Source: Minisyncoccia bacterium
Lineage (GTDB): Bacteria > Patescibacteriota > Minisyncoccia > Phycocordibacterales > SBAW01
Assembly (NCBI GenBank): GCA_049997855.1
Contig: JBEKSG010000004.1
Location: 2,607 to 66,606, forward strand
DNA length: 64,000 bases
Direction of reading: 5' to 3'
Within the stretch, counting starts at the first letter, position 1, and each line of letters begins with the position of its first letter. A program made the translations under genes and the position numbers. This document shows, in pieces, positions 27,317-62,062 of the stretch. The notes under the pieces were generated by a model. It was not told where the DNA came from. It did not search any database and was given only the letters and a program-made list of their open reading frames with translations.

Positions 27317-27448
27317 ATGGACGAGGAACTTTTTGAACTGGCAAAAGAGAACGACCTAACGCTTGATGAGGCGCAGGAGGTTCAGGATCTTGCTGATGAG
27401 ACAGGGTTAGATCTAGAAGAAGCCTTAGAGCTCTGGCAGGAGCAGTAG
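27317..27448 (+). CDS. 43-aa highly acidic small protein, copy 1 (MDEELFELAKENDLTLDEAQEVQDLADETGLDLEEALELWQEQ)
   Basis: Not in ORF track (<60 aa); a second copy at 61931 differs mainly at synonymous sites, implying a selected protein. Confidence 0.5.
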   Translation: MDEELFELAKENDLTLDEAQEVQDLADETGLDLEEALELWQEQ

Positions 27449-27495
27449 TCTGCGGTAATAAAGACAATTTCCTCGAAAAGTGTTATAATATACCT

Positions 27496-28281
27496 ATGAA
27501 GTCATTCCGAGTTTTAGCACAGCCACTTTTCGGCGAGGAGGAAAGAAGGGAATATTTCGTGGATGCCGAGGATGAGGAAGACGCAAAAAAGCTCGGTTTC
27601 GAGAAAATGTTTGCGCGTGAAAGCAAGGATGCGCTGCTCGATAGCCCTAGCCAAATGTTCACCGCCGAAGAAATAACCTTCAGGCCTCGTAGGCTTTCCG
27701 ATCTAATCGACAACATCGAATACTACGTTACGAAAATGCGAAAGACGGAGGATATGGATGTCATTCCCGAAATGCTCAGGCAGTACGCTCTAAATTATTT
27801 TAGGGACGTGCCGTTGGACGATGATGCCCTGCAGGCGGTCGCAATCTTCACGATGGATAAGACCTACCGCGTAGCGGCATACCTGGAAATATTTGATAAC
27901 TACACCAGAGCGTATTTTGCAAAAGTGATTCCCCACATTTGGGATTACCTACACCGCAGAGGACTTCCCGTTTTTTATATTGTCGACAATACGTTCCGAA
28001 ACGACGGAAGGTTTGAAGCTATTACTGAGATGTTCAAGCTCACAGGTATAACCGTAGTATCTCCTTATGACGGAGAAGGTACCCTAGAATACGAAGCTGT
28101 GGGTCGACAGATCAAGGAGGCTGTGGCGGCAAAAATGATTGTCATGTATATCGAGAAGGATGCCCGAGTTAATTACCTCGACCGAGTCAAAGAATTGGCG
28201 ACGAAGTCAAACTACCTCTGCATCTTCAGAAGCAAAGCGTCCGCGAACCACTTGATCGAGATATTAAAGAACCATTCTTAG
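27496..28281 (+). CDS. Hypothetical protein (261 aa)
   Basis: Intact ORF in AT-rich island; no motif recognised. Confidence 0.35.
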   Translation: MKSFRVLAQPLFGEEERREYFVDAEDEEDAKKLGFEKMFARESKDALLDSPSQMFTAEEITFRPRRLSDLIDNIEYYVTKMRKTEDMDVIPEMLRQYALNYFRDVPLDDDALQAVAIFTMDKTYRVAAYLEIFDNYTRAYFAKVIPHIWDYLHRRGLPVFYIVDNTFRNDGRFEAITEMFKLTGITVVSPYDGEGTLEYEAVGRQIKEAVAAKMIVMYIEKDARVNYLDRVKELATKSNYLCIFRSKASANHLIEILKNHS

Positions 28282-28350
28282 ACCTCAATTGGTTAATGTT
28301 GATAGCCCCTTCACAACGTGCTAAATCTAAACTAACATCCTCATACTATT

Positions 28351-29640
28351 ATGACTACAATTACATGCACTAAGTGTGGCGCGGAAATTGAGCTCTCGGA
28401 AGCCCTAACAAAAGACATCGAGAAAACAGTTCTCATTGCCGAGCACAAAAAGCACGAGGCTGAACTGGAGACAGTCAGAAAAGAGGCAGCCGCTAGTGCT
28501 CAAAAGAGTGCTGAATCGACGCTGGAAATTGAAAGAAAAAAGCTTGCACATGAGGCTGATGCTGCAAAAAAAGCTGCGGATGCAGAAATTGAAATTGCAA
28601 AAAAGAAGTTTGAGGCTGAGACGCTTGCGGTAAAAAAGAAAGCATCAGCCGAGAATGATCTCATAATAAAGGAATTGAAAGCTGAAGCAGAAGGTGATAA
28701 AAAATCAAATGGAGAACTCCGTGAGAAACTGAGCGAGTTGATGACGGAGTTGAGAGAAGAGCGCAAAGCTAAGGAAAACGCTGAGTTGGAAATGCAGGAG
28801 AGAATGGCGAAAGAAGAAACAAAAATTCGCGAAGAGGCTACAAAAAATGCTGATGAAAAGTATCGTTTTAAATTGGCGGAAAGTGACAAGAAATTATCAG
28901 ATACACAGAAGGCGTTAGACGAAGCTCAAAGAAAAGCGGCCCAAGGGTCTCAACAACTTCAAGGGGAAGTATTAGAGCTTGATATGGAACAGGCCCTAAG
29001 GGACGAATTTCGTGATGATATTATCGATCCTATTGGCAAGGGAGTAAAAGGAAGTGACATCCGGCAAACTGTTCGAAGTCCAAGAGAGTCAGAATGTGGA
29101 ATCATTTTGTGGGAATGCAAAAGTCACAAGAACTGGAAAGAGGAATGGATACAGACTGCCAAAGAGAATTTGCGGTCCGCTAAAGCAAACATTCCTGTCA
29201 TTGTAAGCAATATAATGCCTAAACAAATTTCTGGAGACATTGGAAATACCAATGGTGTTTGGGTTTGCAAGCCAAGTTCCATGGTGATTCTCGCAACATT
29301 GCTCCGTAAGGGATTACTAGACGTCGGTCTTCAAAAAGCCCTCGCTCAAAATCGCGGTACGAAAGCGGATGCGCTTTTTGGTTTCGTGACTAGTCACGAA
29401 TTTGTGCATCAAGTGGAGGCGATGATAGAAACCTATACTGAAATGAGAGCACAGGTGTTGAAAGAGCGCACTGCATACGAGAAATTTTGGGCTCAAAGAG
29501 AAGCACAGGCACAGAGACTTCTCATGGGAACTGCAAACATTATTGGGGGAATGGCGGGGCACATTGGTGCGACGGCAATGCCAAAAATCAAAGGGTTGGA
29601 ACTACTCGAGGGTGGCAATACAGAACCAGAGGCTGAATAA
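28351..29640 (+). CDS. Zinc-ribbon + long coiled-coil protein (DUF2130-like)
   Basis: N-terminal CTKCG zinc-ribbon-like motif, ~200-aa Lys/Glu-rich coiled coil, conserved C-terminal globular region. Confidence 0.35.
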   Translation: MTTITCTKCGAEIELSEALTKDIEKTVLIAEHKKHEAELETVRKEAAASAQKSAESTLEIERKKLAHEADAAKKAADAEIEIAKKKFEAETLAVKKKASAENDLIIKELKAEAEGDKKSNGELREKLSELMTELREERKAKENAELEMQERMAKEETKIREEATKNADEKYRFKLAESDKKLSDTQKALDEAQRKAAQGSQQLQGEVLELDMEQALRDEFRDDIIDPIGKGVKGSDIRQTVRSPRESECGIILWECKSHKNWKEEWIQTAKENLRSAKANIPVIVSNIMPKQISGDIGNTNGVWVCKPSSMVILATLLRKGLLDVGLQKALAQNRGTKADALFGFVTSHEFVHQVEAMIETYTEMRAQVLKERTAYEKFWAQREAQAQRLLMGTANIIGGMAGHIGATAMPKIKGLELLEGGNTEPEAE

Positions 29641-29672
29641 CTCCCGAGCCGCGTCAAGTTAAAAAAAACTCT

Positions 29673-30287
29673 ATGCCACTCAAATTAAGAAAATATAAAA
29701 ATGCTTGCATAAAACTAAACGGGGGTAATCCCGTTTTTATACCTGAGTCAGATCCAAAAAATGGGACGGGCAAGATAAACATAATGTTTATTAATGAAAG
29801 GCCCGGTCCTAAAACTAGAGGAACGGATCTTGTGTGTTTTGATAATCCTGATCCGACAGCAAGACTGTTTAAACATCTTTTTGAAAAAACTTTTGGTCTA
29901 GAATATCGTAGCCATATCTTTATAACAAACGCAGTAATTTGGGTTCCCGACGAAGCAAAACCAAGAAATTACAAACCCACAAACAAGGAATTGCGAGACA
30001 GTCTGCCAATTTTAAAGAATCAAATAGAAACAATTAAACCAAAGCTGATCGTTTCGTTGGGTAATAGTGCTTTATACTCACTGAAGAGATTGTATTCAGA
30101 ATCTCAAAAACTCAAAGGATATAAACTTACTAATGATATAGGGAAAGTAATAACAGACACACCAATTAGTATTTATCCGGCGTTCCATACTTCGTCTTTA
30201 GGACAGGTCACAAGAAATAAGAAACAGCAGGAAAAAGATTGGCTAAAAATGAGAGGCTTAATCACTACCACCCCATCTAACCCCTAA
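29673..30287 (+). CDS. Uracil-DNA glycosylase superfamily-like protein
   Basis: ERPGP..G motif A-like and AFHTSS motif B-like spacing resembling family 4/5 UDGs; weak. Confidence 0.3.
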   Translation: MPLKLRKYKNACIKLNGGNPVFIPESDPKNGTGKINIMFINERPGPKTRGTDLVCFDNPDPTARLFKHLFEKTFGLEYRSHIFITNAVIWVPDEAKPRNYKPTNKELRDSLPILKNQIETIKPKLIVSLGNSALYSLKRLYSESQKLKGYKLTNDIGKVITDTPISIYPAFHTSSLGQVTRNKKQQEKDWLKMRGLITTTPSNP

Positions 30288-30290
30288 CAT

Positions 30291-30482
30291 ATGAAAAAGG
30301 ACAAGGAGATTAAGATCGTGTATCACTATATCGAGCCCAAAACCGAGGAAGAATCACAGGAGGCAGAGCGGCGCTTGGATGCTGCTTTTGACATCCTTTT
30401 TGAAGCCGTTGAGAGGAAAAACAATAAAAAATTAATCGTTCAGGACACGTCGTCTGGTGAATCTGAAAGACCCACTCTATGA
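30291..30482 (+). CDS. Small hypothetical protein (63 aa)
   Basis: ORF only. Confidence 0.2.
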   Translation: MKKDKEIKIVYHYIEPKTEEESQEAERRLDAAFDILFEAVERKNNKKLIVQDTSSGESERPTL

Positions 30483-30664
30483 TAGAACTACTGACCATAA
30501 AGGAGGTTGCGGAGTTGCTGAAGGTTTCTCAAACTTCAGTGCGACGCCTGCAGCAAGGGCGACATCTCCCATTCATCAAGGTTGGGGGTAGTGTCCGTTT
30601 TGATAAAAGCGACATTATTAATTTCCTAAAGGAACAGAGGGTTGAGGCAATCAGTAGATTTTGA
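30479..30664 (+). CDS. Excisionase-family / MerR-like HTH DNA-binding protein (possible recombination directionality factor)
   Basis: LTIKEVAELLKVSQTSVRRL helix-turn-helix typical of excisionase-family proteins; last gene before att-like inverted repeat. Confidence 0.55.
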   Translation: MIELLTIKEVAELLKVSQTSVRRLQQGRHLPFIKVGGSVRFDKSDIINFLKEQRVEAISRF

Positions 30665-30734
30665 GACTTGCCGGTCGTTGGGCTATTTATTAATTAAATA
30701 GCCAAAGAGCAGTACAGGAGCGGTCGGCAAGTCT
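30665..30734. mobile_element. Candidate att site: nested imperfect inverted repeat (outer arms AGACTTGCCGGTCG / CGGTCGGCAAGTCT 12/14; inner palindrome GGCTATTTATTAATTAAATAGCC)
   Basis: Read from sequence; ~50-bp imperfect dyads are typical of serine-integrase att sites; directly follows excisionase-like gene. Confidence 0.35.
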
Positions 30735-30761
30735 TAGAACCTTCTGAGAATGAGGCTCCCA

Positions 30762-30812
30762 AAAAGTGACACGGTTAAATGCCATTCCTGTGTCACTTTT
30801 GTAACTTTTTGG
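30762..30812 (+). terminator. Hairpin AAAAGTGACAC..GTGTCACTTTT followed by T-run
   Basis: Read from sequence. Confidence 0.35.
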
Positions 30813-30942
30813 TGCGCTCAAGTCGCGTCGATCGGGTAATGTAGAATATAGCTAAACCGCCTTGCAGGACTCGGCCGACCACGGTTCTAGCTCAAGTCGG
30901 CCAGCCAATGGATTTGATGGTGCAGTAGAGTAGAATGAATGT

Positions 30943-31251
30943 ATGGCTTGGTATCTGTATATAGCTAGCTTTTTTGCCGGAATTTTTTTAGCCAATGCAA
31001 TCCCGCATTTCATGCAGGGTGTTTCGGGGAATAGATTTCCCTCACCGTTTGCCAAACCACCCGGCAGGGGACTGTCATCTCCGATGGTCAACGTGGTGTG
31101 GGCACTGTTCAATTTCGTAGTCGGTTATCTGCTGTTACAGGTGGGGCAGGTACGCTCCGGCAACATGATGTCACTCGTCATTTTCTTTGTCGGTGCCGCT
31201 GCCATCAGCATCATGTCGAGCATCAACTTTCAAAAGAAAGAAAGAGAATGA
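30943..31251 (+). CDS. Small integral membrane protein (hypothetical)
   Basis: Three hydrophobic helices. Confidence 0.3.
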   Translation: MAWYLYIASFFAGIFLANAIPHFMQGVSGNRFPSPFAKPPGRGLSSPMVNVVWALFNFVVGYLLLQVGQVRSGNMMSLVIFFVGAAAISIMSSINFQKKERE

Positions 31252-31275
31252 TTGAGATAGCGGCTTCTTAAGTCT

Positions 31276-31632
31276 ATGACTGACCAACCACAAGCAACCG
31301 ACTATTTGGGGAAATCTGTTTTAGTTAAAATAGACCGACCTCTTCATTCAAAACATCCGAAGCATGGTTTTATATATGAGTTGAATTACGGATTTATTCC
31401 CGACACATGTTCCCCCGACGGTGAGGAACTCGACGCGTATGTGCTCAGTGTTACAGAGCCACTGGAAACTTTTACGGGCAAATGCATCGCAGTTATTCAT
31501 CGAACGAACGATGACGATGACAAATTGGTTGTCATTCCGGAAGATATAAAAAATATGACCGATGAGGATATCCGCGCCGCAACGAATTTTCAAGAACAGT
31601 TTTTTAAATCTGAAATAATACGACGCGCATAA
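31276..31632 (+). CDS. Inorganic pyrophosphatase-like protein (short)
   Basis: NYGFIPDT..DGEELDAYVL closely resembles family I PPase active-site segment (YGFIPQT..DGDPLDVLV). Confidence 0.45.
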   Translation: MTDQPQATDYLGKSVLVKIDRPLHSKHPKHGFIYELNYGFIPDTCSPDGEELDAYVLSVTEPLETFTGKCIAVIHRTNDDDDKLVVIPEDIKNMTDEDIRAATNFQEQFFKSEIIRRA

Positions 31633-31996
31633 ACTTTTCGTCCCACAGTTTCTCGTTGGCTCGATTCATCTCCTTAAAACTTCCCAAAACTCCAAAAGAG
31701 CGTCCTGTAGACAACCCCCTTCGCAAGCCTCTATATCTAAGCTAAGGTGTTGGACGGTACCAAATTAGGCGGTATCATGGTTCTGTACAACTGAATAGGG
31801 CTAAGGACCTACCCCGGCGAGTTTTTCTCTCCGGCAAGGTCGAAAATCGTAAGTCACAGAAAACCCGTTATCAGGGCGTGACTTACGTTATCAGGGGAAA
31901 CTCTGATAGGGCCGCAAGGCCTCCTGGTAGCGGGCTTTGTGTTTTCCAAAGTCCATACTACCGGAGGCGATTATTAGTTTTTAGTAACCGCACTAT

Positions 31997-32899
31997 ATGG
32001 ACATACAAGAGGTCGCGAAGAAAAAGATGTTCTATAAACGCTGGTGGTTTTGGGTCGGTATTGTTATCGTCCTGCTCTTAATAATAAGTATCGCCGCAAG
32101 CTCCGGCTCTCCAACCGCCAGCAGCTCTGACATAACGAGCGCGTGCAATGGGTTCTCTCCCGACGCCACCCAGCCGATTGATTACAAGGAACTCAGCAAG
32201 AATCCCGACTCTTTCAAATCCGACCGATCTACGTTTACCGGCCAGATTCTGCAAATTCAAGAATCAGGCGGCGTTGGGTATATGCGCCTCGCGGTCGACA
32301 GAGACCAGTTCGGCTGGAATTTCAGCGACATCATCTTGGTTGATTACCAAGGTCACACCGACGCCGTCCAGAACGACGTCATGACTGTCGGCGGCACTAT
32401 GGAGGGCAGCCAAACTTACACCTCACAAGCGAACTTTCAAATCACTCTGCCTCTCATGTACGCTTGCTCAATTACAGAAGCCTCTTCTACTGCAAACGCA
32501 GCATCGACCCAAACCAAAACTGCCGCCGCCCCCACTCCGTCTGCTCCCCAGCAGACTCACAGCACCCAAAGCAGCGCGACGGTAAACAATAGCGGCACCG
32601 TCACTTCGCCACCCGCGCCGCCGGCCTCGTGGCACACAGTTACAACCTTCAGCGGCCAGACGCAGAAGAATACACCTCCATTTACCATCAAGGGATCGCA
32701 GTGGCGCATCACCTGGCAAGAGACGGGCGACGGCTACTTTGGCGCGGATACCCAAAGCCCTGATGGCAGCAACTATTGTTCCATCGCAAATCTCGCCGGT
32801 CCAGGTTCCGACTCTACTTACTGCTACACGCCGGGCACGTATTACATTTCGGTCAACACGGCTAATTCTTGGACGATGACCGTGGAGGACTACTACTAA
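31997..32899 (+). CDS. Membrane-anchored/secreted protein with Ser/Thr/Ala-rich linker (hypothetical)
   Basis: N-terminal TM helix, low-complexity linker, C-terminal beta-rich domain. Confidence 0.35.
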   Translation: MDIQEVAKKKMFYKRWWFWVGIVIVLLLIISIAASSGSPTASSSDITSACNGFSPDATQPIDYKELSKNPDSFKSDRSTFTGQILQIQESGGVGYMRLAVDRDQFGWNFSDIILVDYQGHTDAVQNDVMTVGGTMEGSQTYTSQANFQITLPLMYACSITEASSTANAASTQTKTAAAPTPSAPQQTHSTQSSATVNNSGTVTSPPAPPASWHTVTTFSGQTQKNTPPFTIKGSQWRITWQETGDGYFGADTQSPDGSNYCSIANLAGPGSDSTYCYTPGTYYISVNTANSWTMTVEDYY

Positions 32900-34743
32900 T
32901 ACCTCCGCATCATTTTGTTGAAGACATCCCGCTCCTCGTTTTTGATCCGTTCCCTCGCTATCCTATCCGCCTCCCGGTGCCGCTCGAGCAATGCGCGTGC
33001 GGGATCCCAGCCGCTGCGCGGCACTTCTTGTTTGCCGATGATCTCGAGGTCGGCTTCGTGCTCATTCATGGGGCCCTCCGGCGGCGGAGTATACGTTCCC
33101 GACGGCACCACGAATTTAGTCCTCGTGTATTCCCGCATCTCCGAATAGGCAAACCACAGCGCCATCAGCGAGTCGCCGGAGTGCCCGTCGGGGAAGGCCC
33201 GCATCTCGTTTACTAACTGGGTAACAAGTCGAAGCGTCCGCGCGTCCTTTGTATTGTATGGAAGAATAAACTTGCCCTGCGCCAAGGCGATCGCCAAACT
33301 GTTCACTCCGATGTCCGGGTCGTGTTTCTCCGCGCCCGTTTTGTAGCCTCGTACGGGAATGTTGTAATCGCCGAGGTCGAGCACCAGCGATTCTTGAAAC
33401 GCGACCGATTCGACCCGTATGCCCACAGGCTCCACTGCGGCGTCGTGTTTCAACACTATGTCTATGGTTTCCTTGGGAGCGAACTTTCCGCGCACGATAT
33501 TGCGTAAGACGAGGTCTCCTCTCTTGAATTCACCTCCGTCATATTTGATCCGGTCGATGCTGAGCAAGACGGTATCGTCGGAGGAATCTTTGAGAGAGAT
33601 AGCCAAGTCGAGTCCCGATGCCGTACACTCGGTCTCGTACTCCGTGCGGAGAGCGTCCTGCAACGTTAAATCTCTACCTTTGTGGAGAGCCTTCTCGATA
33701 TCCGCCTCGGAAAACTTTTGATTCGGCCGCGATGAGGGGTCGCACTGGAACATGCGCGCGAATGAGTAGGGGTTGGCAATCCGTCTGAGATACAGGTCGG
33801 CATAAGGGAACCGCTCAGGCCACAGCACCTCCACCCCCTTCTCCATCTCAACTTTATGTTCGGCATAGAAGGCGTTCGACCTGGACCGCTTTTCCTCCGG
33901 CGGCAAGCTTTCGTCGAGGTGAATGTTCGCCCACTGCTCCCACAGGTCCTGCCGCGTCGCCTCATGGAGAATGGCGGCCGTGCGCCTGCGGACATCGAAT
34001 TGAGGATCTTTGAGCAAGTTGTTCATAAGGTCGTCCATATGCCACACGTTGCCCATGTAGATGAACCGCCCGCCTGGTACAAGAATCGGCATAAGCGTGG
34101 TGTATACCCAGTCCTTTATTTTCTTGCGCTGTTCTTCGGTTGCGCTGTTTTCCTGATTAACTATGTCGTCGCAGATGATGATGTCGGCGCGTTTGGAGAT
34201 GAGCGGCCCAAAGAGGCCGGTCGCGACAATGGTCGCATCCTTGAGCCGGTAATCGTCGCGTTCAATGACAATTGAGTCGGTGCCCCAGCGTTCCTCTCGC
34301 TTCTGCCGCATCTTGAGCTTAGGTGTTACCCCTTTCTTCGTCGGGTCGATGGTCTGTCCCCACAGCCGGTACTTCGTATTGCGCTCGATGTGCCCGGTGA
34401 TTTCTCTCATGAACATGCGCGTCACGTCGGCGGTGCTCGACACCAAAAGAATCCGCACATTGTGGTTGCGGGCTATCTCCCACAATGCATACGCCACCGA
34501 GAGGTGTGTCGACTTGCCGAACCCACGCGGCAGGGCGATGGCGAGCTTGCGATTGAGCTGGTTAGAGAGCGTATCGTCAAGCTCATTGTGAAAGGGCGCA
34601 TTATCGAGCCCTATTATCTCCGCGATAAACATGCGGAAGTTGTCTGCCGACAAGGCACACATGACCGCCAGCTCACTGAGCCGCCCATTGTTTTCCTTAC
34701 TTTCCTTATTCTTTTTCATGGTTGTCAGACTTAGGTTGATCAT
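32896..34743 (-). CDS. Phage terminase large subunit
   Basis: Walker A-like LPRGFGKST, Walker B ADIIICDDI, C-terminal RNaseH-like nuclease region; 615 aa. Confidence 0.7.
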   Translation of the reverse strand: MINLSLTTMKKNKESKENNGRLSELAVMCALSADNFRMFIAEIIGLDNAPFHNELDDTLSNQLNRKLAIALPRGFGKSTHLSVAYALWEIARNHNVRILLVSSTADVTRMFMREITGHIERNTKYRLWGQTIDPTKKGVTPKLKMRQKREERWGTDSIVIERDDYRLKDATIVATGLFGPLISKRADIIICDDIVNQENSATEEQRKKIKDWVYTTLMPILVPGGRFIYMGNVWHMDDLMNNLLKDPQFDVRRRTAAILHEATRQDLWEQWANIHLDESLPPEEKRSRSNAFYAEHKVEMEKGVEVLWPERFPYADLYLRRIANPYSFARMFQCDPSSRPNQKFSEADIEKALHKGRDLTLQDALRTEYETECTASGLDLAISLKDSSDDTVLLSIDRIKYDGGEFKRGDLVLRNIVRGKFAPKETIDIVLKHDAAVEPVGIRVESVAFQESLVLDLGDYNIPVRGYKTGAEKHDPDIGVNSLAIALAQGKFILPYNTKDARTLRLVTQLVNEMRAFPDGHSGDSLMALWFAYSEMREYTRTKFVVPSGTYTPPPEGPMNEHEADLEIIGKQEVPRSGWDPARALLERHREADRIARERIKNEERDVFNKMMRRY

Positions 34744-35137
34744 TGTTCAAGAAAGGTTCGATGAGTTTCTTGGTCTCGGGCTTGAGTTCGCCGAACACTT
34801 CAAGAAAAAGGTTCTCATCACTATCCTGCGCTATGGCAAAGCCCGAATCGAACATGCGCTGGCGGTAATTGGTGTGATTGTTTTTGAGCCAGAAGATGAC
34901 CGCCGTGTAATTCGCGTTCTTGATGCCCGCGAGCAGCTGCGACTCGGCGGCGTCGTTTACGACGGCGATTCCTTCTGTCAGCGCTTTGTTTACTGCCTTG
35001 GCAAACTCGGGGTCATCTTCCTTCCAGCGGTAGAGCGAGGCGCGGCTGACGCCGACTTTTTCGCAGGCAATCTGGATGATGGGCGTTCTCTGCAGCTGCT
35101 CCAGCAACAGCTCTTTCATGCGCTTATTTCGCTTCAT
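34706..35137 (-). CDS. Phage terminase small subunit-like HTH protein
   Basis: HTH (IACEKVGVSRASLYRW), immediately upstream of and overlapping terminase large subunit. Confidence 0.45.
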   Translation of the reverse strand: MKRNKRMKELLLEQLQRTPIIQIACEKVGVSRASLYRWKEDDPEFAKAVNKALTEGIAVVNDAAESQLLAGIKNANYTAVIFWLKNNHTNYRQRMFDSGFAIAQDSDENLFLEVFGELKPETKKLIEPFLNNDQPKSDNHEKE

Positions 35138-35912
35138 ATATGATTTTCGCTTGCTTGCCGGTTAATTTCTCCCACCGTTCGACTGCGATGAGAACGTACT
35201 CCAAGTCCAGCTCGACTCCGAAGCACCGCCGTTTCGTCTGCTCCGCCGCCAGCAGGGTCGTGCCGCTGCCGAGGAAGCCGTCGTAGACCGTGTCGCCGAT
35301 GTCGGTTGAGTTGAGGATGAGGCGGCGGATGAGACCGATAGGTTTGGTCGTCGGATGCATCTTGCTTTTGGTCGGGCGGGGATAGAACAGCACCGACTTG
35401 TCCTTCGACCGGCGAAACTTATGGACTCCGTGCCAGCCGTAAAGGATGAGTTCATGCGCGGGCGCGTAATCGAGCCGCCCGACCACCGCCTGCGACTTCA
35501 CCCATACCAGCAACTGTGCGACTTTGAAATCTGCTTCCAGCATTCCTTCCCGCAACGCCCACACCATCTTGTCGGCGTTGAAGATGTAGGCGGCGTTGCG
35601 CCGGGCAAGAAAGGGAGTGACCGCCTCAAGCCACTCGCGTGTGAACTTTCGATACTCCGCGTCCGACTGCAAGTGGTCGTTGGCAACCGCCTTGTCTTTA
35701 GAGAGCGTCTTGAAGCCGCGCTTGGATTCGGCTACCGCCACGCCGTACGGCACGTCACAACACAGCAGATTGACGTGGGTATCTCCAATGAGCCTCTCAA
35801 GCAGCTTTTTGTCCCGTGCGTCGCCATATGCGAGGCGATGCTCGTCGAGTTGCCAGATGGTCCCGGGCTTAATTAAGTTTTTTTGCTTTGATTCCGGTTG
35901 CTTGTTCATATC
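35124..35912 (-). CDS. DNA N6/N4 methyltransferase (start at MNKQPESK..; listed longer ORF is over-extended)
   Basis: Motif IV DVPY (LLCCDVPYG), C-terminal FxGSGTT AdoMet motif typical of pfam N6_N4_Mtase. Confidence 0.65.
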   Translation of the reverse strand, partial: DMNKQPESKQKNLIKPGTIWQLDEHRLAYGDARDKKLLERLIGDTHVNLLCCDVPYGVAVAESKRGFKTLSKDKAVANDHLQSDAEYRKFTREWLEAVTPFLARRNAAYIFNADKMVWALREGMLEADFKVAQLLVWVKSQAVVGRLDYAPAHELILYGWHGVHKFRRSKDKSVLFYPRPTKSKMHPTTKPIGLIRRLILNSTDIGDTVYDGFLGSGTTLLAAEQTKRRCFGVELDLEYVLIAVERWEKLTGKQAKIIYEAK

Positions 35913-37149
35913 GTTTGATGATGAGATCCGCGAAGATAAGATTAAATTCCAAGGTGAAGCACACGCGTTTGAGCGCGTCGCAGGCAAGCAGCGTCGACCC
36001 GCTGCCGCCGAATAAATCAAGGACTGTACCTCCCGGCCGCGTGCACCGCTTGAGCGGCCGCTCGTGGAGGGTGAGGGGTTTTTGCGTAGGATGTTCGTAC
36101 TCAACTCCCGCAACGCGCTTGGCGAGCCATATGTCCATCGAGTCTTTGATATCGTCCATCAATTTATTACCCGAAGGTCCCAACTCCTTGTTGAGCACTT
36201 CGGCAAAGTTAAGGCCGACCGGGAAGATGTACGGACCCCCGCGCGTCGCATACACGCACGGCTCGTAACATTTATTAAACGCGACGTTGGGAGTCGGATT
36301 CGCCGCACCTTTTATCCACAGACACACCCGCCTGTTTTGCAGGCCAAGCTCGGCGAACAACCCCTGCACCATGCCGATGTATTTTTGGTCGGCCCAATAG
36401 AAGGTATGGCAGTCGGGTTTCGTTACCGCGAGAGCGTTCTCCATCGAGGTATGCAGAAACGCGCGGTATTCCTCGTCCGACTGCGTGTCGTCAACTACGC
36501 CGCCATAGTGCGCTTTGCCGCTGACTCCCTTGTCGTAATCGAGCGAGATATTGTACGGCGGGTCGCAGTAAATCATGTCGATTTGCGTCTTGCCGACCAG
36601 CCGCTTCACCGCCGCCGAATCGAGAGCGTCTCCCACCAATAGTCGGTGCGGTCCGAGCGCGTAGAGGTCCCCGAGTTTTGATTTCGGTTCTACACTTTTG
36701 GCGAGTTCCGCCTCGACATCAAACTCATCGTCACTTACCTCAAGCGCGTCGGCAAAAATGACCGACAAATCGTTGTCGTCAAACCCCGAGGCGAGCATGG
36801 TGTCGAGATCGAAGTACTGCCCGAGCACTCCATAGTCCCAATCGCCATGGATGCGATTACTTGAGAGGAGGTATTGCTCGTACTCTTGTTTGGTTAATTT
36901 TCTGCTGGGCACACGCACGGGGATTTCTTCTTCGCCGCGCCCAAGCAGTTGGAGCGCGAGCAGGCGTTGATGCCCGGCGATTATTTTGTCGTCCGCATCG
37001 ATGACCGGCAGCTCGACGATGTCGAACTTGCGGAGACTCTTTTTGAGGTCCTCCATTTGTTTGGGGGACATAACACGGGGATTCTTGGGGTTGGGGACGA
37101 GCACGGAGACTTTGCGGGTCTCGGTGCGCCATTGGAGCTTTTGAGCCAT
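35869..37149 (-). CDS. ParB-like nuclease domain / DNA N6-N4 methyltransferase fusion
   Basis: N-terminal ParB-like motif, motif IV DPPY (IYCDPPYN), C-terminal FGGSGST. Confidence 0.75.
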   Translation of the reverse strand: MAQKLQWRTETRKVSVLVPNPKNPRVMSPKQMEDLKKSLRKFDIVELPVIDADDKIIAGHQRLLALQLLGRGEEEIPVRVPSRKLTKQEYEQYLLSSNRIHGDWDYGVLGQYFDLDTMLASGFDDNDLSVIFADALEVSDDEFDVEAELAKSVEPKSKLGDLYALGPHRLLVGDALDSAAVKRLVGKTQIDMIYCDPPYNISLDYDKGVSGKAHYGGVVDDTQSDEEYRAFLHTSMENALAVTKPDCHTFYWADQKYIGMVQGLFAELGLQNRRVCLWIKGAANPTPNVAFNKCYEPCVYATRGGPYIFPVGLNFAEVLNKELGPSGNKLMDDIKDSMDIWLAKRVAGVEYEHPTQKPLTLHERPLKRCTRPGGTVLDLFGGSGSTLLACDALKRVCFTLEFNLIFADLIIKRYEQATGIKAKKLN

Positions 37150-53240: not shown

Positions 53241-53244
53241 CACT

Positions 53245-54512: not shown

Positions 54513-54513
54513 C

Positions 54514-56410: not shown

Positions 56411-56523
56411 AAAGCAAAAACGAAAACGTTCTTTCTTCCGGAGAGATGAACGGGACCCCAACTCCTCCAGAAAGAAGTTTCCGTTTTTGCTTCCGGCTAC
56501 TTGATAAGGTAGCATGAGTCTCT

Positions 56524-58149
56524 ATGACTCAGACGCAGGCTTTAGCGATACTCAAAACGGGCGCAAATGTTTTTTTAACCGGCGAGCCGGGCTCGGGCAA
56601 GTCGCACACCGTCAACGAGTTTACAGGGTGGCTCCGTTCGCGGGGCATCGAGCCCGCCATCACCGCATCCACCGGCATTGCCGCCACGCACATCGGCGGC
56701 CTTACCATCCACTCGTGGGCGGGCATCGGCATCAAGCGGCGCCTAAGCCAATATGACTTGGACCGCATTGCCTCGACCGAGCACGTGGTCAAGCGCATGC
56801 GCCGCACCAAAATTTTAATTATCGACGAAGTTTCGATGCTCTCACCGGATACGCTCTCGATGGTTGATGCCGTATGCCGCGAGGTGTTGGGCAGCGCCCA
56901 AGCGTTTGGCGGCTTGCAGGTGGTGTTTGTCGGCGACTTTTTCCAACTGCCGCCTATCATCGCGCGCGACGCCGAGCCCGAGGTTGATGAGGATGGCATG
57001 TTTCAAGTCGGCGCTGAAGTGCCGCGCTTTGCCTACTCCTCGCAGGCATGGAAGCGCGCCAACCCGGTCGCGTGTTACTTAACCGAGCAACATCGTCAGG
57101 AGAGCGGCGCGTTTCTCGGCGTGCTTTCGGCAATCCGCCGCAATCAGTTTGGTGAGAAACACATGGAGCATATCGCGTCGCGCAAAATCGGGAGAGACAA
57201 GGCACCTGCCCAGGCACCCAAACTCTACTCGCACAACGCCGACGTCGACAAAATCAACGACGACACGCTCGGCAGTCTCGAGGGCTCGCCAAAAAGTTTT
57301 GTGATGGAAGGGCGCGGCACGCCGGCGATTGTCAAAGCGCTCAAAAAATCGTGCCTCTCGCCCGAAGCATTGTTTTTAAAACTCAATGCTTCGGTCATGT
57401 TTACCAAAAATAATCCCAAAGAGGGTTTTGTAAATGGCACGCTTGGATTAGTTACCGGTTTTAGTTCATACAACAATTATCCGATGGTAAAAACGCGCGA
57501 AGGCCGCACTATTTTGGTAGAGCCGATGGAATGGAGCATCGAGGAGGGCGGCGTCGTGCGCGGGAGCATCAGCCAGTTGCCATTGCGTCTCGCGTGGGCA
57601 ATCACCGTGCACAAAAGCCAGGGGCTATCGCTCGACGAAGCCGTGATGGACCTAAGCCGGGTATTTGAGTACGGCCAGGGCTACGTGGCGCTCTCGCGCG
57701 TGCGCAGCCTGGAGGGGCTCTACCTCTTGGGATGGAATCGCCGCACGTTTGAGGTGCACCCGGAGGTGCTTGCCAAAGACGAGCAGTTTAGAGAGGCGAG
57801 CGAGGAAGCCTCGATTGCGTTTGATAAAATCCCGCGCGGCGATCTGCAAAAAATGCACAACAACTTTTTGATTGCGTGCGGTGGTACATTAGAAACAGCA
57901 ACGCCCGCCAAGGCTGCCTTGGCGGGCAATAAAATCCAAGAGCGCACTCAGCAAGTGGGGCGGCTTGCGGAGATTAGAGAAAAGCATCCTAATGCCTATC
58001 GGCCGTGGAGCGAGGATGACGACGACAAATTAAAAGATATGTACGAGAGCGGCAGCACACCGGCACAACTCCAAAAAACCTTCGGTCGCCAGCGCGGCTC
58101 CATCCACGCCCGCCTCATCAAGCTTGGATTAATCGAGGATACGCAGTAA
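56524..58149 (+). CDS. PIF1/RecD-like SF1 DNA helicase with C-terminal HTH
   Basis: Walker A GEPGSGKSH, AAA_30-type motifs, SF1 motif VI region, C-terminal HTH (STPAQLQKTFGRQRGSIHARLIKLGL). Confidence 0.8.
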   Translation: MTQTQALAILKTGANVFLTGEPGSGKSHTVNEFTGWLRSRGIEPAITASTGIAATHIGGLTIHSWAGIGIKRRLSQYDLDRIASTEHVVKRMRRTKILIIDEVSMLSPDTLSMVDAVCREVLGSAQAFGGLQVVFVGDFFQLPPIIARDAEPEVDEDGMFQVGAEVPRFAYSSQAWKRANPVACYLTEQHRQESGAFLGVLSAIRRNQFGEKHMEHIASRKIGRDKAPAQAPKLYSHNADVDKINDDTLGSLEGSPKSFVMEGRGTPAIVKALKKSCLSPEALFLKLNASVMFTKNNPKEGFVNGTLGLVTGFSSYNNYPMVKTREGRTILVEPMEWSIEEGGVVRGSISQLPLRLAWAITVHKSQGLSLDEAVMDLSRVFEYGQGYVALSRVRSLEGLYLLGWNRRTFEVHPEVLAKDEQFREASEEASIAFDKIPRGDLQKMHNNFLIACGGTLETATPAKAALAGNKIQERTQQVGRLAEIREKHPNAYRPWSEDDDDKLKDMYESGSTPAQLQKTFGRQRGSIHARLIKLGLIEDTQ

Positions 58150-58175
58150 AATTATAAAGCTACACTATATTACAG

Positions 58176-58320
58176 ATGATTAAAAAGATAAAAAGCAAAT
58201 ACGTGGTGCTGTCCGAAAAAGGCGACCGCTCCTTTGGTACCTACAAAACTCTTGCCGAAGCCAAAAAGCGCCTGGGGCAAGTTGAGTTTTTTAAACATAG
58301 AGCAGCCAAAAAGGGAAGAT
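58176..58320 (+). CDS. Small basic protein (48 aa, MIKKIKSKYVVLSEKGDRSFGTYKTLAEAKKRLGQVEFFKHRAAKKGR)
   Basis: ORF below track threshold; speculative. Confidence 0.2.
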
Positions 58321-58353
58321 AGTAATATTCCTCATATTTGGTAGGCTTGGGCC

Positions 58354-58965
58354 GTGAATCCGGATGAAATAAAGACATTTTTGGAATCTTTTAAGGACAG
58401 GGCAGCACGAACAATTGTTGTGGTGGATTTCGGAAATGTAGATAAGTGGGAAAAGAATCTTGGCTGGCGGATAGGCCTTCAAGAGCTCGGACGATTAGTT
58501 AAGCATTTTGCACAAGGAAATAAATCATTGCGACGCTTTTATTACGGTTCAGATTATGGTCCTAAAGAGTATTCAACATCGCTTTCACTCTGGTCAGGAA
58601 GTATTCTAAATCGTGCGGAAATGAATCGGTTTGAAGTAATAACTAAGCCTGTAAAATATATCCACGACACGTCAAAGTCCGGCGGGTATGAAAAGAAGTG
58701 CGACTTTGATGTTGAAATGGCGGTTGATCTAGTTCGTATGAGAAATGATTACGACGATATTGTTTTGTTTTCTGGTGATGGAGATTTAGTATATGCGCTT
58801 CGCTATTTAAAAGATGCTTTTGGAAAGACTTCACACGTATTTAGTGCTCGTGGTCACGTAGGTCGGGAAGTGGTTGATGCTGCCAAAGACGGTGTGATTA
58901 AGCGACTTTTATATGCTGACGATTTTCGTTACCGATTAGATATGACTCGCTTCCATAAACACTAA
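58354..58965 (+). CDS. NYN/LabA-like (PIN-fold RNase) domain protein, GTG start
   Basis: VVVDFGNV, DFDVEMAVDL, VLFSGDGDL acidic motifs of NYN domain. Confidence 0.65.
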   Translation: MNPDEIKTFLESFKDRAARTIVVVDFGNVDKWEKNLGWRIGLQELGRLVKHFAQGNKSLRRFYYGSDYGPKEYSTSLSLWSGSILNRAEMNRFEVITKPVKYIHDTSKSGGYEKKCDFDVEMAVDLVRMRNDYDDIVLFSGDGDLVYALRYLKDAFGKTSHVFSARGHVGREVVDAAKDGVIKRLLYADDFRYRLDMTRFHKH

Positions 58966-59118
58966 AATTTCAAAGGCCCGCCCCTTTCGAGGCAGGCCTT
59001 GATCAAAGTCCGGTAGGGGTTACCTACAAGGCCCACTATACCCATATTCAGATTAAAAATCAATGAGGTGTTGAGAACTCTAAAAAGATAAGCAGTATAT
59101 GGCTAAAATCCCTCATAT

Positions 59119-59484
59119 TTGATAAGCTTGAATCATATGGCTGATCTTCAAGATTTGATAAAACTAGTTAGAGAATTTAGAGACGCACGTGATTGGAAGC
59201 AATTTCATAATCCTAAAGATTCGGCAATTTCTCTTACTCTCGAAGCTACAGAAGTTTTGGAACATTTCCAGTGGAAAAATAAGGAGGAAATGGAGAAATA
59301 TATTAAGTCTAATAAAGCAGACATAGCTGAAGAATTGGCGGACGTGCTCTATTGGGTTTTTCTTATGGGTAATGATTTAGATATTGATCTTTCTGAAGCG
59401 TTTATTAAAAAGTTAAAAAAGAACGGAGAAAAATACCCTATAGATAAGGCAAAAGGGAACCATACGAAGTACAATAAACTATGA
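59119..59484 (+). CDS. MazG-like nucleoside triphosphate pyrophosphohydrolase (start TTG 59128 or ATG 59137)
   Basis: All-alpha NTP-PPase motif (LQDLIKLVREFRDARDWKQFHNPKDSAISLTLEATEVLEHFQW, EELADVLYW); ATGA overlap with downstream gene. Confidence 0.65.
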   Translation: MISLNHMADLQDLIKLVREFRDARDWKQFHNPKDSAISLTLEATEVLEHFQWKNKEEMEKYIKSNKADIAEELADVLYWVFLMGNDLDIDLSEAFIKKLKKNGEKYPIDKAKGNHTKYNKL

Positions 59485-61793
59485 GACTTTACTCAGGCTC
59501 ATCCACTCAGTTTTTGGATGATACCGTGCATAATCAAATAGGGGACAAACTCAAGGAATCTTTTTTCCAATATTTTCGCTACTACCCTTCCCCAAATGAA
59601 GTGCAATCATGGAGAAATTCACTCCGTGCTGTTTCTCAAGTATTCGATTATTCAAAATTACATGATCATGGAGTAATTCTTGAATATCAACTCCCTCAGA
59701 CATCCAAGCGCCTCGATTGCATGATAACCGGCAAAGATCAACCCGGGAGCGATAGAGCGGTTGTCATTGAGCTCAAACAATGGGAGAAATGTGAAGCCTC
59801 AGATGGAGAAAACGAAGTGACTACATGGGTCGGGGGAGCAAAAAGGGAGGTTCTTCATCCATCTGTTCAAGTTGGCCAATATAAAATGTATTTACAAGAT
59901 CTTCATCCAGCATTTGATGGTGAGAATTCTATTAAACTTGATGCAGTTTCTTACCTTCACAATTATTCTCCTGTAGAAAATGACGAGCTTCTAACGGCAA
60001 AATTTACAGAAAAAATAAAAAGCAATCCGGTCTTTTGTGCAAATGATGTGAATATTTTTAGTGTATATCTTAAAAACAGACTCTCAGCCGGAAGTGGTTT
60101 ACCAATACTCGAACGTGTGGAAAAGACAGAATACAAAGTGAGCAAGAAGTTAATGGACCACGTCAGTAAGATAATAAAAGAGAAAAGCGAATATATACTT
60201 CTTGATGAACAACTTATCGTATATGACAAAGTATTTTCTCTTGTTAAACAAGAACTTAAAAAAGACGAGAAATCAGTAGTTATTATTAGTGGTGGTCCCG
60301 GCACTGGAAAATCTGTAATTGCTATTAATCTTATGGCAGATTTGTTGCGAGCAGGATATGACACTAACTACGCTACTGGATCGAAAGCATTTACTGAAAC
60401 CCTGAGGAAAAAAATTGGGGTGCGCGGCGCTGTTCAATTCAAATATTTTAATAGTTATATGAATTCGAATAAAAATATTCTAGATGTCCTTATTGCAGAC
60501 GAAGCCCATCGTATTAGAGAGACGAGCAATAATCGGTTTACGAAGAAGGAAATGCGATCAGATACCCCGCAAATTGAAGAGCTTATCAAAGCATCAAAAA
60601 TTGGAGTGTTTTTCATTGACGACAATCAAAATGTTCGTCCTAATGAAACTGGGTCTGCAGAATTCATTAAAGATACTGCTATTAAGATGGGATGCGAGGT
60701 GTACGAATATGAATTAGAAGCGCAATTTCGGTGCAGTGGGTCAGATGCATTCGTAAGCTGGATAAATAATACACTTGGAGTTAGACGTACTGCGAATGTC
60801 ATTTGGGATCAGAAAGAAGAGTTTGATTTTCAAATTATGGATTCGCCACAAGAATTATATGAAAAAATAAAACAAAAGAATAACGAAAAACATAGTTCCG
60901 CACGACTTGTTGCGGGTTTTTGTTGGCCATGGAGTAACCCGAACTTAGATGGAACACTGGTAAACGACGTCAAAATTGGCGACTTTGAAATGCCATGGGA
61001 AGGTAAAGACGGTTACAAATTAGCTCCAGGGATACCGCCCGCTTCACTCTGGCCAAATGATCCAAATGGGGTGAATCAAATAGGCAGTATTTATACAATT
61101 CAAGGATTTGAATTTGATTATGTAGGAGTAATCATTGGCTCGGATCTTGTCTATAACTTTGAAAACCAAACTTGGATTGCATTAAGAGAAAAATCTGCAG
61201 ATAGTGTGGTAAAGCGCTCTGGAGAAAAACTTGTTGATCTCCTTAAAAATACTTACCGCGTCCTTCTTACTCGAGGCATGAAAGGATGTTATGTATATTT
61301 TGTAGACAAGGAGACAGAAAAGTTTTTTAAGAGTAGAATCGAAGCAAAAAAGAGCTATCAAAAATCTTCGGTACTTATTTTGTCTCCAATTACTGTAGAT
61401 ATGGTCCGTATTCCACTTGTCGGATCTGCTCCATGTGGTGCTCCACTGCTTGGTGAGGAAAATATAGAGGAGTATATAAACGTAGAAAAATCAAAAATTA
61501 AACCCGGTTTTAAGTATTTTATTCTTCGGGCTGAGGGCGACTCCATGAATCTTGCTGGCATAAATAACGATGATCTCGTCTTATGTCGTCAGCAATTAAA
61601 GGCCGATACAGGCAATAGAGTTGTTTCTTTGCTTGGTGATAACGTGACTATCAAGGTTTATGGTGAACGAATCGGAGGTGTGAGAAAATTATTACCAAAA
61701 AGTACAAACAAAAAACATCAACCAATAATCCCAGGAGAGGGAGATACTGTGCAGGGAGTCGTACAAGAAGTACTTGCACCGAACAACAAATAA
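59481..61793 (+). CDS. PD-(D/E)xK nuclease / DUF2075 AAA ATPase / LexA-UmuD-like S24 peptidase fusion (770 aa)
   Basis: N-terminal LDCMI..VVIELKQWEK nuclease-like motif; Walker A GGPGTGKS, Walker B LIADEAHRI; C-terminal PLVGSAPCGAPLLGE (UmuD-like Cys-Gly cleavage site), GDSM Ser and Lys exactly 37 residues later as in LexA. Confidence 0.75.
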   Translation: MRLYSGSSTQFLDDTVHNQIGDKLKESFFQYFRYYPSPNEVQSWRNSLRAVSQVFDYSKLHDHGVILEYQLPQTSKRLDCMITGKDQPGSDRAVVIELKQWEKCEASDGENEVTTWVGGAKREVLHPSVQVGQYKMYLQDLHPAFDGENSIKLDAVSYLHNYSPVENDELLTAKFTEKIKSNPVFCANDVNIFSVYLKNRLSAGSGLPILERVEKTEYKVSKKLMDHVSKIIKEKSEYILLDEQLIVYDKVFSLVKQELKKDEKSVVIISGGPGTGKSVIAINLMADLLRAGYDTNYATGSKAFTETLRKKIGVRGAVQFKYFNSYMNSNKNILDVLIADEAHRIRETSNNRFTKKEMRSDTPQIEELIKASKIGVFFIDDNQNVRPNETGSAEFIKDTAIKMGCEVYEYELEAQFRCSGSDAFVSWINNTLGVRRTANVIWDQKEEFDFQIMDSPQELYEKIKQKNNEKHSSARLVAGFCWPWSNPNLDGTLVNDVKIGDFEMPWEGKDGYKLAPGIPPASLWPNDPNGVNQIGSIYTIQGFEFDYVGVIIGSDLVYNFENQTWIALREKSADSVVKRSGEKLVDLLKNTYRVLLTRGMKGCYVYFVDKETEKFFKSRIEAKKSYQKSSVLILSPITVDMVRIPLVGSAPCGAPLLGEENIEEYINVEKSKIKPGFKYFILRAEGDSMNLAGINNDDLVLCRQQLKADTGNRVVSLLGDNVTIKVYGERIGGVRKLLPKSTNKKHQPIIPGEGDTVQGVVQEVLAPNNK

Positions 61794-61847
61794 AATAACT
61801 GGATTCTCTACATTTTTATCCCGGCCTTTCCTTCTCTCTCTTATACT

Positions 61848-61865
61848 AGTGTTTTGCAAAACACT
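61848..61865. promoter_or_regulatory. Perfect 18-bp palindrome AGTGTTTTGCAAAACACT between DUF2075-S24 gene and small acidic ORF copy 2
   Basis: Read from sequence; possible operator or terminator stem. Confidence 0.3.
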
Positions 61866-61930
61866 ACAATAACGAGCCCACAACTCTACTCCGGGCTTTA
61901 CTTTACTTACCAAATCTCTACACTTTAGAC

Positions 61931-62062
61931 ATGGACGAAGAACTTTTTGAACTGGCAAAAGAGAACGACCTCACGCTCGACGAGGCAGAAGAGGTGCAGG
62001 ACTTAGCCGATGAGCTAGGGGTTGATCTAGACGAGGCCCTGGAAATTTGGCAGGAGCAATAA
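61931..62062 (+). CDS. 43-aa highly acidic small protein, copy 2 (MDEELFELAKENDLTLDEAEEVQDLADELGVDLDEALEIWQEQ)
   Basis: About 80% nt identity to 27317..27448 with mostly synonymous differences; not in ORF track. Confidence 0.5.
   Translation: MDEELFELAKENDLTLDEAEEVQDLADELGVDLDEALEIWQEQ

Follow-up and report, generated by a model that had tools for sequence, protein, structure and literature searches.

A family of 43-residue acidic proteins encoded at the 3' edge of nuclease and restriction-modification cassettes in Patescibacteria

The 64,000-nucleotide stretch of Minisyncoccia bacterium contig JBEKSG010000004.1 analysed here (assembly GCA_049997855.1, positions 2,607 to 66,606; hereafter the window) carries two copies of a small gene, each specifying an extremely acidic protein of 43 amino acids (aa) and each lying 3' of a cassette of defence-like genes. 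Comparison with more than 90 loci gathered from other genomes and metagenomes, which are numbered from L001 onward and hold either the small gene or a gene of its sister family, shows from the positions at which homology ends that the cassette to its left and the DNA to its right have apparently been exchanged independently between genomes. We propose, with moderate confidence, that the products constitute a new family of compact three-helix polyanionic mini-proteins, the gene for which is a conserved joint at the 3' edge of exchangeable nuclease and restriction-modification (R-M) cassettes. The boundary of a defence island is a known kind of feature; here it is built on a small-protein family which had not been described.

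The 43-residue protein family

Both open reading frames (ORFs) lie where an original prediction for this stretch of DNA had placed them, and translate as it had claimed. Copy 1 encodes MDEELFELAKENDLTLDEAQEVQDLADETGLDLEEALELWQEQ, from which the copy 2 protein departs by five conservative changes (Q20E, T29L, L31V, E34D and L39I). The two 132-nt ORFs are identical at 107 of 132 positions (81%), and when they are aligned together with 100 nt of flanking DNA the similarity extends from the ATG to the stop codon only, the flanks being unrelated. The predicted values of about 80% identity, with differences mostly synonymous or conservative and unrelated surroundings, are thus borne out. By the Nei-Gojobori method approximately 16.5 of the differences are synonymous and 7.5 non-synonymous, giving a synonymous divergence (dS) of about 1.5 and a ratio of non-synonymous to synonymous divergence (dN/dS) of 0.05; pairs drawn from the family give ratios of 0.03–0.1 with dS saturated. 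The proteins of L009 and L010 are exactly that of copy 1 and are specified by DNA only ~86% identical, the differences being essentially all synonymous, and across 17 loci nearly every codon varies among several synonyms without a change of amino acid. Judged by this pattern of substitution the small gene is a genuine protein-coding gene under purifying selection, as had been predicted, and not a repeat element.

A word-indexed search recovered 113 clusters at 90% identity, almost all of exactly 43 aa and 64–100% identical to copy 1, the ATG and the 43-aa length being constant across them. The predicted protein family is therefore real, its homologues are many, and the constancy of start and length speaks against the gene being the 3' end of a longer, frameshifted one. 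More than 90 independent contigs carry the same ORF, a recurrence far beyond chance. A profile search of 1.84 billion representative proteins returned 119 clusters at 50% identity, nearly all of them standalone proteins of 40–80 aa. It also matched two proteins of 1095 and 4323 aa over many stretches, which we assume to be acidic repeat proteins. Three apparent fusions (P0164, P0189 and P0218) were judged to be read-through or extended gene calls and are uninformative.

The named sources of the 113 clusters all point to Patescibacteria, and the genome records of the small-gene loci name Kaiserbacteria, Adlerbacteria and Minisyncoccia. Two further labels in these records, Saccharibacteria and Pseudobdellovibrionaceae, may be mis-assigned, the latter being attached to a contig of 1.8 kb. 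The family appears to be confined to Patescibacteria of the Minisyncoccia/Kaiserbacteria/Adlerbacteria group.

Among its 43 residues the protein has 17–18 Asp or Glu, one lysine and an invariant Trp40, and its computed isoelectric point is 4.05. AlphaFold2, supplied with the family alignment, models the monomer as three helices (residues 3–11, 16–29 and 33–42) with a predicted local distance difference test score (pLDDT) of 91. No Pfam, NCBIfam, PHROG or PADLOC family matches the protein, and no relatives were found among IMG/VR viral contigs, INPHARED phages or PLSDB plasmids, searches in which the low-complexity filter of BLAST may lower sensitivity. A profile search of the PDB gave a single sub-threshold match (E 3.2e-5) to the designed toroid repeat protein dTor_6x35L, summed over six repeats; all other matches, including weak ones to the helix-hairpin-helix of TopoV, had E values above 0.1. 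Foldseek returned nothing below E=1 from either the PDB or BFVD, a 43-aa three-helix unit being too small for an informative fold search. Homology to Ocr, ArdA or another DNA mimic, to which the protein had been likened, was found neither by the sequence nor by the fold searches. Since our literature search also located no description of the 43-aa protein, this is a previously undescribed small-protein family, missing from Pfam and NCBIfam.

Flanking genes and homology breakpoints

Dereplication left 62 distinct upstream neighbours, among which there are just six small homologue groups. The upstream neighbour is co-directional with the small gene in 55 of the 62, the median gap being 9 nt and the gap 15 nt or less in 37. 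Those annotated individually belong to Type I R-M systems with YgjP and PDDEXK_1 (L009, L011), Type ISP systems with PDDEXK_1 (L010, L012) or DUF2779 (L024) and Type III Res/Mod systems (L004, L017–L021). Others are an HKD-helicase with a type IIG enzyme, as in the window (L013), an N6_Mtase/Eco57I-domain methyltransferase (MTase) with an HSDR_N-like N-terminus (L001), an MTase-S fusion with DUF4357 (L003), an OLD-family nuclease with ResIII (L006) and an RNase_T exonuclease (L007). When Pfam and PADLOC counts are aggregated over the 62 proteins the leading families are ResIII/SWI2_SNF2, HSDR_N, T1RH-like_C, DUF2779, PDDEXK_1/Cas4, N6_N4_Mtase, NYN, REase_I and REase_III; AbiU2 and Hypoth_Ymh also occur. 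The 51 distinct downstream neighbours include Peptidase_S49 (3), HTH_24 (4), SocA_Panacea (2), a terminase, GatB, YchF, ClpS and FtsK. R-M families are present among the former and none is found among the latter; nuclease and R-M genes therefore lie upstream only.

One to three copies of the small gene are found per genome. Three are present in the metagenome-assembled genome (MAG) bin-1576 (one in L006, two in L008) and two in the 64 kb of the window, and in both genomes each copy follows a different cassette.

Three kb on each side of the small gene were compared in all pairs of loci, and in 1177 of the 1261 informative pairs the small gene is all that the two have in common. In about three independent cases homology comprises the upstream gene or genes plus the small gene, and ends 3–45 nt past the stop codon. 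L009 and L010 share an 858-bp block of PDDEXK_1 and the small gene at 93.5% identity, whereas identity between their ParB-MTase genes is just 67%; in L071, L072, L077 and L082 HsdR and the small gene are ~90% identical and homology ends just past the stop. In about six cases it comprises the small gene and the DNA downstream, beginning 0–15 nt before the ATG: L031 matches window copy 2 from the ATG into the Peptidase_S49 gene (86.8%), L003 and L013 share the small gene into TerL, and L008a, L042 and L049 share it into the LOOT RNA. Because the breakpoints fall at either end of the gene, it behaves as a joint whose left and right flanks have recombined independently. The suggestion that the gene travels with defence cassettes is accordingly correct for L009/L010 and for L071/72/77/82, but at least as many pairs have kept the small gene with the downstream DNA. 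The other role once suggested, that of a cassette-boundary gene linked to defence and R-M cassettes, agrees both with the breakpoints at the gene ends and with R-M genes being upstream only.

Two recurrent sites illustrate this. At the first, which we call Locus B, the small gene precedes a Peptidase_S49 gene (window copy 2, L004, L031 and L054), and this pair is itself preceded by DUF2075-S24 in the window, by a 764-aa gene in L031 and by a Type III system in L004. At the second, in which the small gene is followed by TerL, the preceding genes are those of Type I, ISP and IIG systems in different loci.

Arrays and decayed copies occur as well. L038 has two copies of the small gene 1 kb apart and L008 likewise has two. 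In L003 a 17-codon stump (5085–5138) encoding MDEELFELAKEDDFTLC and ending in a stop codon, with an AT-rich start of its own, stands before the DUF4357 gene, after which comes a full copy; the stump looks like the scar of cassette insertion or of recombination within the small gene. Truncated or frameshifted copies are present in L087 (1446), L089 (692–816) and L090 (792). In the metagenome loci L030–L091, 21 of 58 contigs stop no more than 600 nt downstream of the small gene and 4 do so upstream (binomial p ~0.001), which suggests population-level polymorphism, or a repeat, just past its 3' end. Arrays, stumps and the bias in contig ends are consistent with turnover at the joint.

A second family of acidic Patescibacteria proteins, of 47–48 aa, consists of 27 clusters with the consensus MDPEEILELVKEGVIEPDQIEDFENLDPEVQQLVADGDLDMDDA.DL. 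In a profile-profile comparison it matches the 43-aa family with 88% probability (E 2.8e-6) and a 7-residue insertion. Its genes are found after Type I (L092), Type III (L093–L096) and type IIG systems, the last in L013, where the 48-aa ORF lies 16 nt after the type IIG MTase; L093 has two copies 1.2 kb apart. A precomputed match of this sister family to PF22746 (SHOCT-like) is faint and lies below any threshold. The two families diverged long ago yet occupy the same position, which speaks for an association with R-M cassettes that is maintained rather than accidental.

The 12 nt before the ATG of the small gene are rich in A and T, with T at −1 in 48 of 65 loci, and Shine-Dalgarno (SD)-like motifs are nearly absent (2 of 65). 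TAnnnT hexamers are found 3–9 nt before the ATG in 30 of the 65, versus 8–12 in control windows. These signals fit leaderless transcription or coupling to the upstream gene alike. A promoter belonging to the small gene was considered and set aside, as the TAnnnT enrichment cannot separate leaderless transcription from translational coupling. The genes which follow the two window copies start 7–16 nt past a TATAAT-like box and lack an SD sequence (27461–27489, the box coming from a promoter scan; 62064–62096, the box before the Peptidase_S49 gene having been read by eye). Starts that are SD-less or leaderless may be the norm in this genome.

How such a joint might operate can be sketched. Cassettes would be swapped by recombination in which the small gene serves as one homology arm, and the LOOT RNA gene, a tRNA gene or a second copy of the small gene as the other; some cassettes would arrive on serine-recombinase islands. 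The protein would be made from the SD-less, AT-rich start directly behind the last cassette gene, and may be bound, as a generic polyanion resembling nucleic acid, by a conserved DNA-binding partner. It may temper DNA-targeting enzymes, with no one system as its specific partner.

Several observations weigh against this scheme. No recognisable nuclease lies upstream where the neighbour is Obg, PrsW, a photolyase (L016) or a housekeeping block (L027–L029), nor in L008b, where it is a divergent ParB-MTase gene. Because many upstream neighbours have no Pfam match, the defence fraction among them is a lower bound. The copy number per genome comes from few MAGs. Both the recombination mechanism, deduced from breakpoints, and the translation of the small gene, deduced from selection, are read from sequence comparisons. 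Divergent copies, which are ~80% identical over 132 nt, would be poor substrates for homologous recombination except among close relatives, and service as a homology arm would be a by-product and not the selected function, because the synonymous sites carry no DNA-level constraint. DNA-mimic or moderator activity is plausible, the grounds for it being charge, size and position. The main uncertainty is the biochemical activity of the mini-protein, for which the part of a polyanionic ligand is our conjecture.

The window loci, the LOOT RNA and the packaging module

The features of the window, together with those LOOT RNAs and sister-family genes of other loci to which we refer, are collected in Table 1.

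Table 1. Coordinates of the small genes, their neighbours and associated elements in the window and in other loci
Feature	Locus	Coordinates	Strand	Remarks
tRNA-Met	window	17654-17727		beside serine recombinase
Large serine recombinase	window	18607..19938	-	left edge of low-GC island; homologous to L016 island recombinase
HKD/PLD-SNF2 helicase	window	20035..23283	+	first gene in cassette 5' of copy 1; Pfam; PADLOC HKD+Snf2 3e-46
Type IIG restriction enzyme-methyltransferase (Eco57I/MmeI-type)	window	23285..26965	+	Pfam; PADLOC REase_MTase_IIG 1e-246
DUF7768 / nucleoside 2-deoxyribosyltransferase-like gene	window	26962..27312	+	116 aa; Pfam DUF7768 (1e-22); PHROGs nucleoside 2-deoxyribosyltransferase
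Small acidic gene, copy 1	window	27317..27448	+	43 aa; GenBank ABSE76_01990, hypothetical protein
HTH_17 (excisionase-like) small gene	window	30479..30664	+	near island right edge; BLASTP 2e-8 to L016 gene hitting Pfam HTH_17
LOOT RNA (RF03000)	window	31806..31922	+	68.9 bits; backbone-level GC (~0.54) resumes here
TerL	window	32896-34743	-	PHROG TerL 2e-71
TerS	window	34706-35137	-	
DNA MTase	window	35124-36113	-	
ParB-MTase	window	35869-37149	-	
MazG-like gene and DUF2075(SLFN-g3 helicase)-Peptidase_S24 gene	window	59119..61793	+	low-GC cassette 5' of copy 2; PADLOC PDC-S41/AbiO/Nhi-like
Perfect 18-bp palindrome AGTGTTTTGCAAAACACT	window	61848..61865	.	between DUF2075-S24 gene and copy 2
Small acidic gene, copy 2	window	61931..62062	+	43 aa; GenBank ABSE76_02195, hypothetical protein
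Membrane-anchored Peptidase_S49 (SppA-like)	window	62097..62903	+	conserved downstream partner of copy 2; same order in L004, L031, L054
LOOT RNA near small gene	L004	763-892		
LOOT RNA near small gene	L006	10193-10314	-	
LOOT RNA near small gene	L008	2117-2235		
LOOT RNA near small gene	L009	10758-10877		
LOOT RNA near small gene	L010	5953-6079		
LOOT RNA near small gene	L017	1560-1690		
LOOT RNA near small gene	L033	1800-1918		
LOOT RNA near small gene	L042	1477-1603		
LOOT RNA near small gene	L067	3763-3876		
Sister-family gene	L013	4724-4870		
Sister-family gene	L092	7001-7147		
Sister-family genes	L093	7001-7144 and 8392-8535		

Copy 1 begins 4 nt past the stop of the DUF7768 gene, which is the last of the helicase/type IIG operon. 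This is the spacing given in the original prediction, where the gene was named DUF4406; current Pfam assigns it to DUF7768. The PLD-helicase and MTase said to lie upstream are the HKD/PLD-SNF2 helicase and the type IIG enzyme of Table 1. Copy 2 begins 137 nt past the end of the DUF2075-Peptidase_S24 gene, itself 3' of the MazG-like gene, and is followed after 34 nt by the Peptidase_S49 gene. The MazG/DUF2075-S24 pair and the palindrome reported before this copy are both there. The palindrome, which might serve the S24/LexA-like protein as its operator or else act as a terminator, occurs once in the window and belongs to the cassette (variable) side of the junction. That it is part of the conserved unit was ruled out, the homology between L031 and the window beginning exactly at the copy 2 ATG. 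The guanine plus cytosine (GC) content of the 1 kb upstream of each copy is 0.38–0.39, in keeping with the low-GC cassettes predicted, and that of the small genes is 0.49–0.51; because the cassettes are low in GC and the small genes backbone-like, there is a step in GC at the ATG.

The low-GC stretch in which copy 1 resides measures 11.7 kb (20.0–31.7 kb). Between 17654 and 31700 the window contains the tRNA-Met, the serine recombinase, the HKD-helicase/type IIG genes, DUF2130, a UDG-family gene and the HTH_17 gene, which resembles an excisionase (Xis), and we regard this region as a putative integrative island. The island of L016 possesses a homologous pair of recombinase and helix-turn-helix (HTH) genes and an MvaI_BcnI R-M system, with the small gene at the opposite island end. 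Directly after its serine recombinase a group I intron match (70 bits) lies on the minus strand (14472–14792). Direct repeats of the attachment (att) type were sought around the 16.5–33 kb island and only short chance matches were obtained.

Beyond this island lies the terminase module, on which the small gene converges. The order small gene, then TerL/TerS/DNA MTase/ParB-MTase, which we call Locus A, is found in the window, L003, L008, L009, L010, L013 and L024, and L032 and L039 probably belong here also; only 5–25 nt separate the small gene from the converging module in L003, L013, L024, L032 and L039. The packaging module of the window (32896–37149) stands alone, without structural genes beside it, and is conserved in several Minisyncoccia genomes. 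At Locus A the LOOT RNA often lies between the small gene and the Ter module. LOOT is found 0.1–6 kb from the small gene in roughly one distinct locus in four, and in L008a, L042 and L049 it lies 102–103 nt past the small-gene stop. In L004 and L017 LOOT and the small gene bracket the Type III R-M cassette from opposite sides. LOOT may be the other conserved edge of these islands, or their attachment site; our literature search found no description of its genomic context. Parts of diversity-generating retroelements lie a few kb from the small gene in two unrelated loci, L022 (8627–9952; bAvd and RVT_1) and L024 (183–524; bAvd).

Competing explanations and known systems

Much of the above could also be understood if the small gene were the dedicated last gene of defence operons, its product being a DNA mimic or moderator that is carried on the cassette and expressed together with the nuclease upstream, and its position functional and not recombinational. 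Such a protein might limit self-damage or help a new R-M cassette to become established. One would then expect what is seen in the tight, SD-less spacing behind co-directional nuclease and R-M genes, in the confinement of R-M families to the upstream side and in the different cassette before each copy in a genome. The PDDEXK_1 and HsdR modules, which stay with the small gene while the downstream DNA differs, the common position of two anciently diverged families and the extreme acidity point the same way. We nevertheless find this explanation possible but doubtful. The same, even an identical, protein stands behind unrelated enzymes, so that there is no specific co-evolving partner; in several pairs the cassette has been replaced and the small gene has stayed with the downstream DNA; and some copies have no nuclease upstream at all. 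The protein is similar to no known mimic or regulator and, on a limited search of the literature, we know of no precedent for a host-encoded universal R-M moderator. An antitoxin or immunity protein specific to the adjacent effector, as first suggested, is supported by no test, and is unlikely because identical proteins follow unrelated enzymes.

Alternatively the product might be an ordinary cellular mini-protein, for example a binder of some basic housekeeping protein, whose gene merely sits beside integration hotspots so that the link with defence is positional. The synteny with Peptidase_S49 at Locus B and with the TerL module and LOOT at Locus A, the backbone-like GC, the very high conservation whatever the neighbour, the contexts of L027–L029 with Obg, GatB, YchF and ClpS as neighbours elsewhere, and the lack of relatives in the viral and plasmid collections would all be accommodated. 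A purely positional role fits poorly with multiple copies per genome and with tandem arrays of gene, small gene, gene, small gene; nor does it sit well with flanks that are hypervariable on both sides (62 neighbour clusters upstream, 51 downstream), the frequency of truncated copies, the modules that move together with the upstream nuclease or a diverged sister family having the same R-M adjacency, and we consider it unlikely. The gene could also belong to a prophage, satellite or integrative element and serve anti-restriction in the manner of Ocr and ArdA, being expressed on entry to protect the DNA of the element; this seems to us very improbable. The recombinase and Xis-like gene in the island of copy 1, the same pair in L016, the orphan TerS/TerL/ParB-MTase module so often nearby and the acidity of the protein recommend it; yet IMG/VR, INPHARED and PLSDB hold no relative, PHROG and BFVD gave no match, many copies are in plain chromosomal contexts, and the gene lies behind the R-M genes of the host itself and not in the leading region of an element. 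Least credible of all is that we are not dealing with a protein gene, but with a DNA repeat or att site, a small RNA or the 3' remnant of a longer frameshifted gene. The shortness of the ORF and its position at recombination junctions might suggest as much. A DNA repeat, att site or RNA is excluded by synonymous sites that vary freely at fixed amino acids; more than 100 clusters agree in ATG and length, and Rfam gave no match over the small ORFs.

To return to the conserved joint, a broader form of it, which we put forward tentatively and think rather unlikely to hold in full, would be that the defence cassettes of Patescibacteria each end in a conserved "tail" gene from one of two ancient families (43 and 47–48 aa). 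Its product would be a universal polyanionic, DNA-like moderator of enzymes that target DNA, and its sequence would, with LOOT, provide the joints for shuffling. If true, a protein-coding gene would here play the part of a cassette boundary, an arrangement with no described equivalent.

A large part of bacterial diversity belongs to the Patescibacteria, which cannot be cultivated on their own and defend themselves chiefly by systems of the R-M type. How their defence systems are acquired and turned over is poorly known. A tiny, readily recognised and near-invariant gene offers a landmark for defence islands, and for new defence genes, in fragmentary MAGs, many of its upstream neighbours having no known domain. 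The 5-kDa protein is a concrete candidate for a host-encoded DNA mimic or nuclease moderator, and through these loci the orphan LOOT RNA acquires its first genomic context. Should the gene be only a positional marker, there would still be a new conserved small-protein family to add to Pfam and NCBIfam.

Among described systems several share one or another property with the small gene. The DNA-mimic anti-restriction proteins Ocr and ArdA, as well as the enzyme inhibitors Ugi and phi29 p56, are small and very acidic, and the surroundings of the small gene are rich in restriction enzymes and nucleases. Unlike Ocr and ArdA, with which it shares neither sequence nor fold similarity, the mini-protein is far smaller (43 aa, three helices), and its gene belongs to the cell and stands next to that cell's R-M genes, with no phage or plasmid relative in the collections searched. 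Mimics of the Ocr/ArdA type are elongated oligomers whose carboxylates imitate the B-DNA backbone and which inhibit Type I R-M; our model of the mini-protein is of a monomer. Polymorphic nuclease toxins with their immunity genes, and nuclease-inhibitor pairs such as colicin-Im and barnase-barstar, also have a small acidic gene a few nt downstream of a nuclease on the same strand. Immunity proteins co-vary with their toxin, whereas an identical 43-aa protein follows DUF7768/type IIG in the window, Type I plus PDDEXK_1 in L009 and Type ISP plus PDDEXK_1 in L010. The controller (C) proteins of R-M systems are HTH DNA-binding proteins encoded upstream of, or overlapping, the restriction endonuclease gene; the mini-protein matches no HTH family, is acidic, and its gene comes last, downstream of the R-M genes. 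With SHOCT and SHOCT-like domains (PF09851, PF22746) there is in common a short helix-turn-helix-like motif of the type L..La..g.it.eEa, and a Pfam search of the 43-aa family gave no SHOCT match even at E<=10.

Integron cassettes, which consist of an ORF plus attC, offer a closer parallel in that a conserved unit stands at the 3' end of many unrelated cassettes (62 upstream genes here) and arrays of gene, unit, gene, unit are formed (L038, L003, L008, L093). The attC is a structured DNA site, whereas the small gene codes for protein, is selected at the amino-acid level and leaves synonymous sites free; no tyrosine integron integrase was found beside the small-gene arrays, and serine recombinases are confined to some of the loci. 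The defence hotspots that are flanked by core genes, and the minimal mobile elements of naturally competent bacteria, to which small-gene loci may be likened, come nearer still. In the hotspots a conserved gene borders a site at which unrelated R-M or defence cassettes replace one another, and homology breaks at the gene edge, as at the Peptidase_S49 locus (window versus L031 and L004) and in the LOOT, R-M, small gene order of L004 and L017. The small gene differs in being a multi-copy mini-gene of 132 nt with tandem arrays and stumps and not a single-copy core gene, and in that variability may lie on its 5' or on its 3' side. In its working it comes closest to a cassette boundary or to the conserved gene that flanks a defence hotspot; its likeness to a DNA mimic is one of charge and neighbourhood only.

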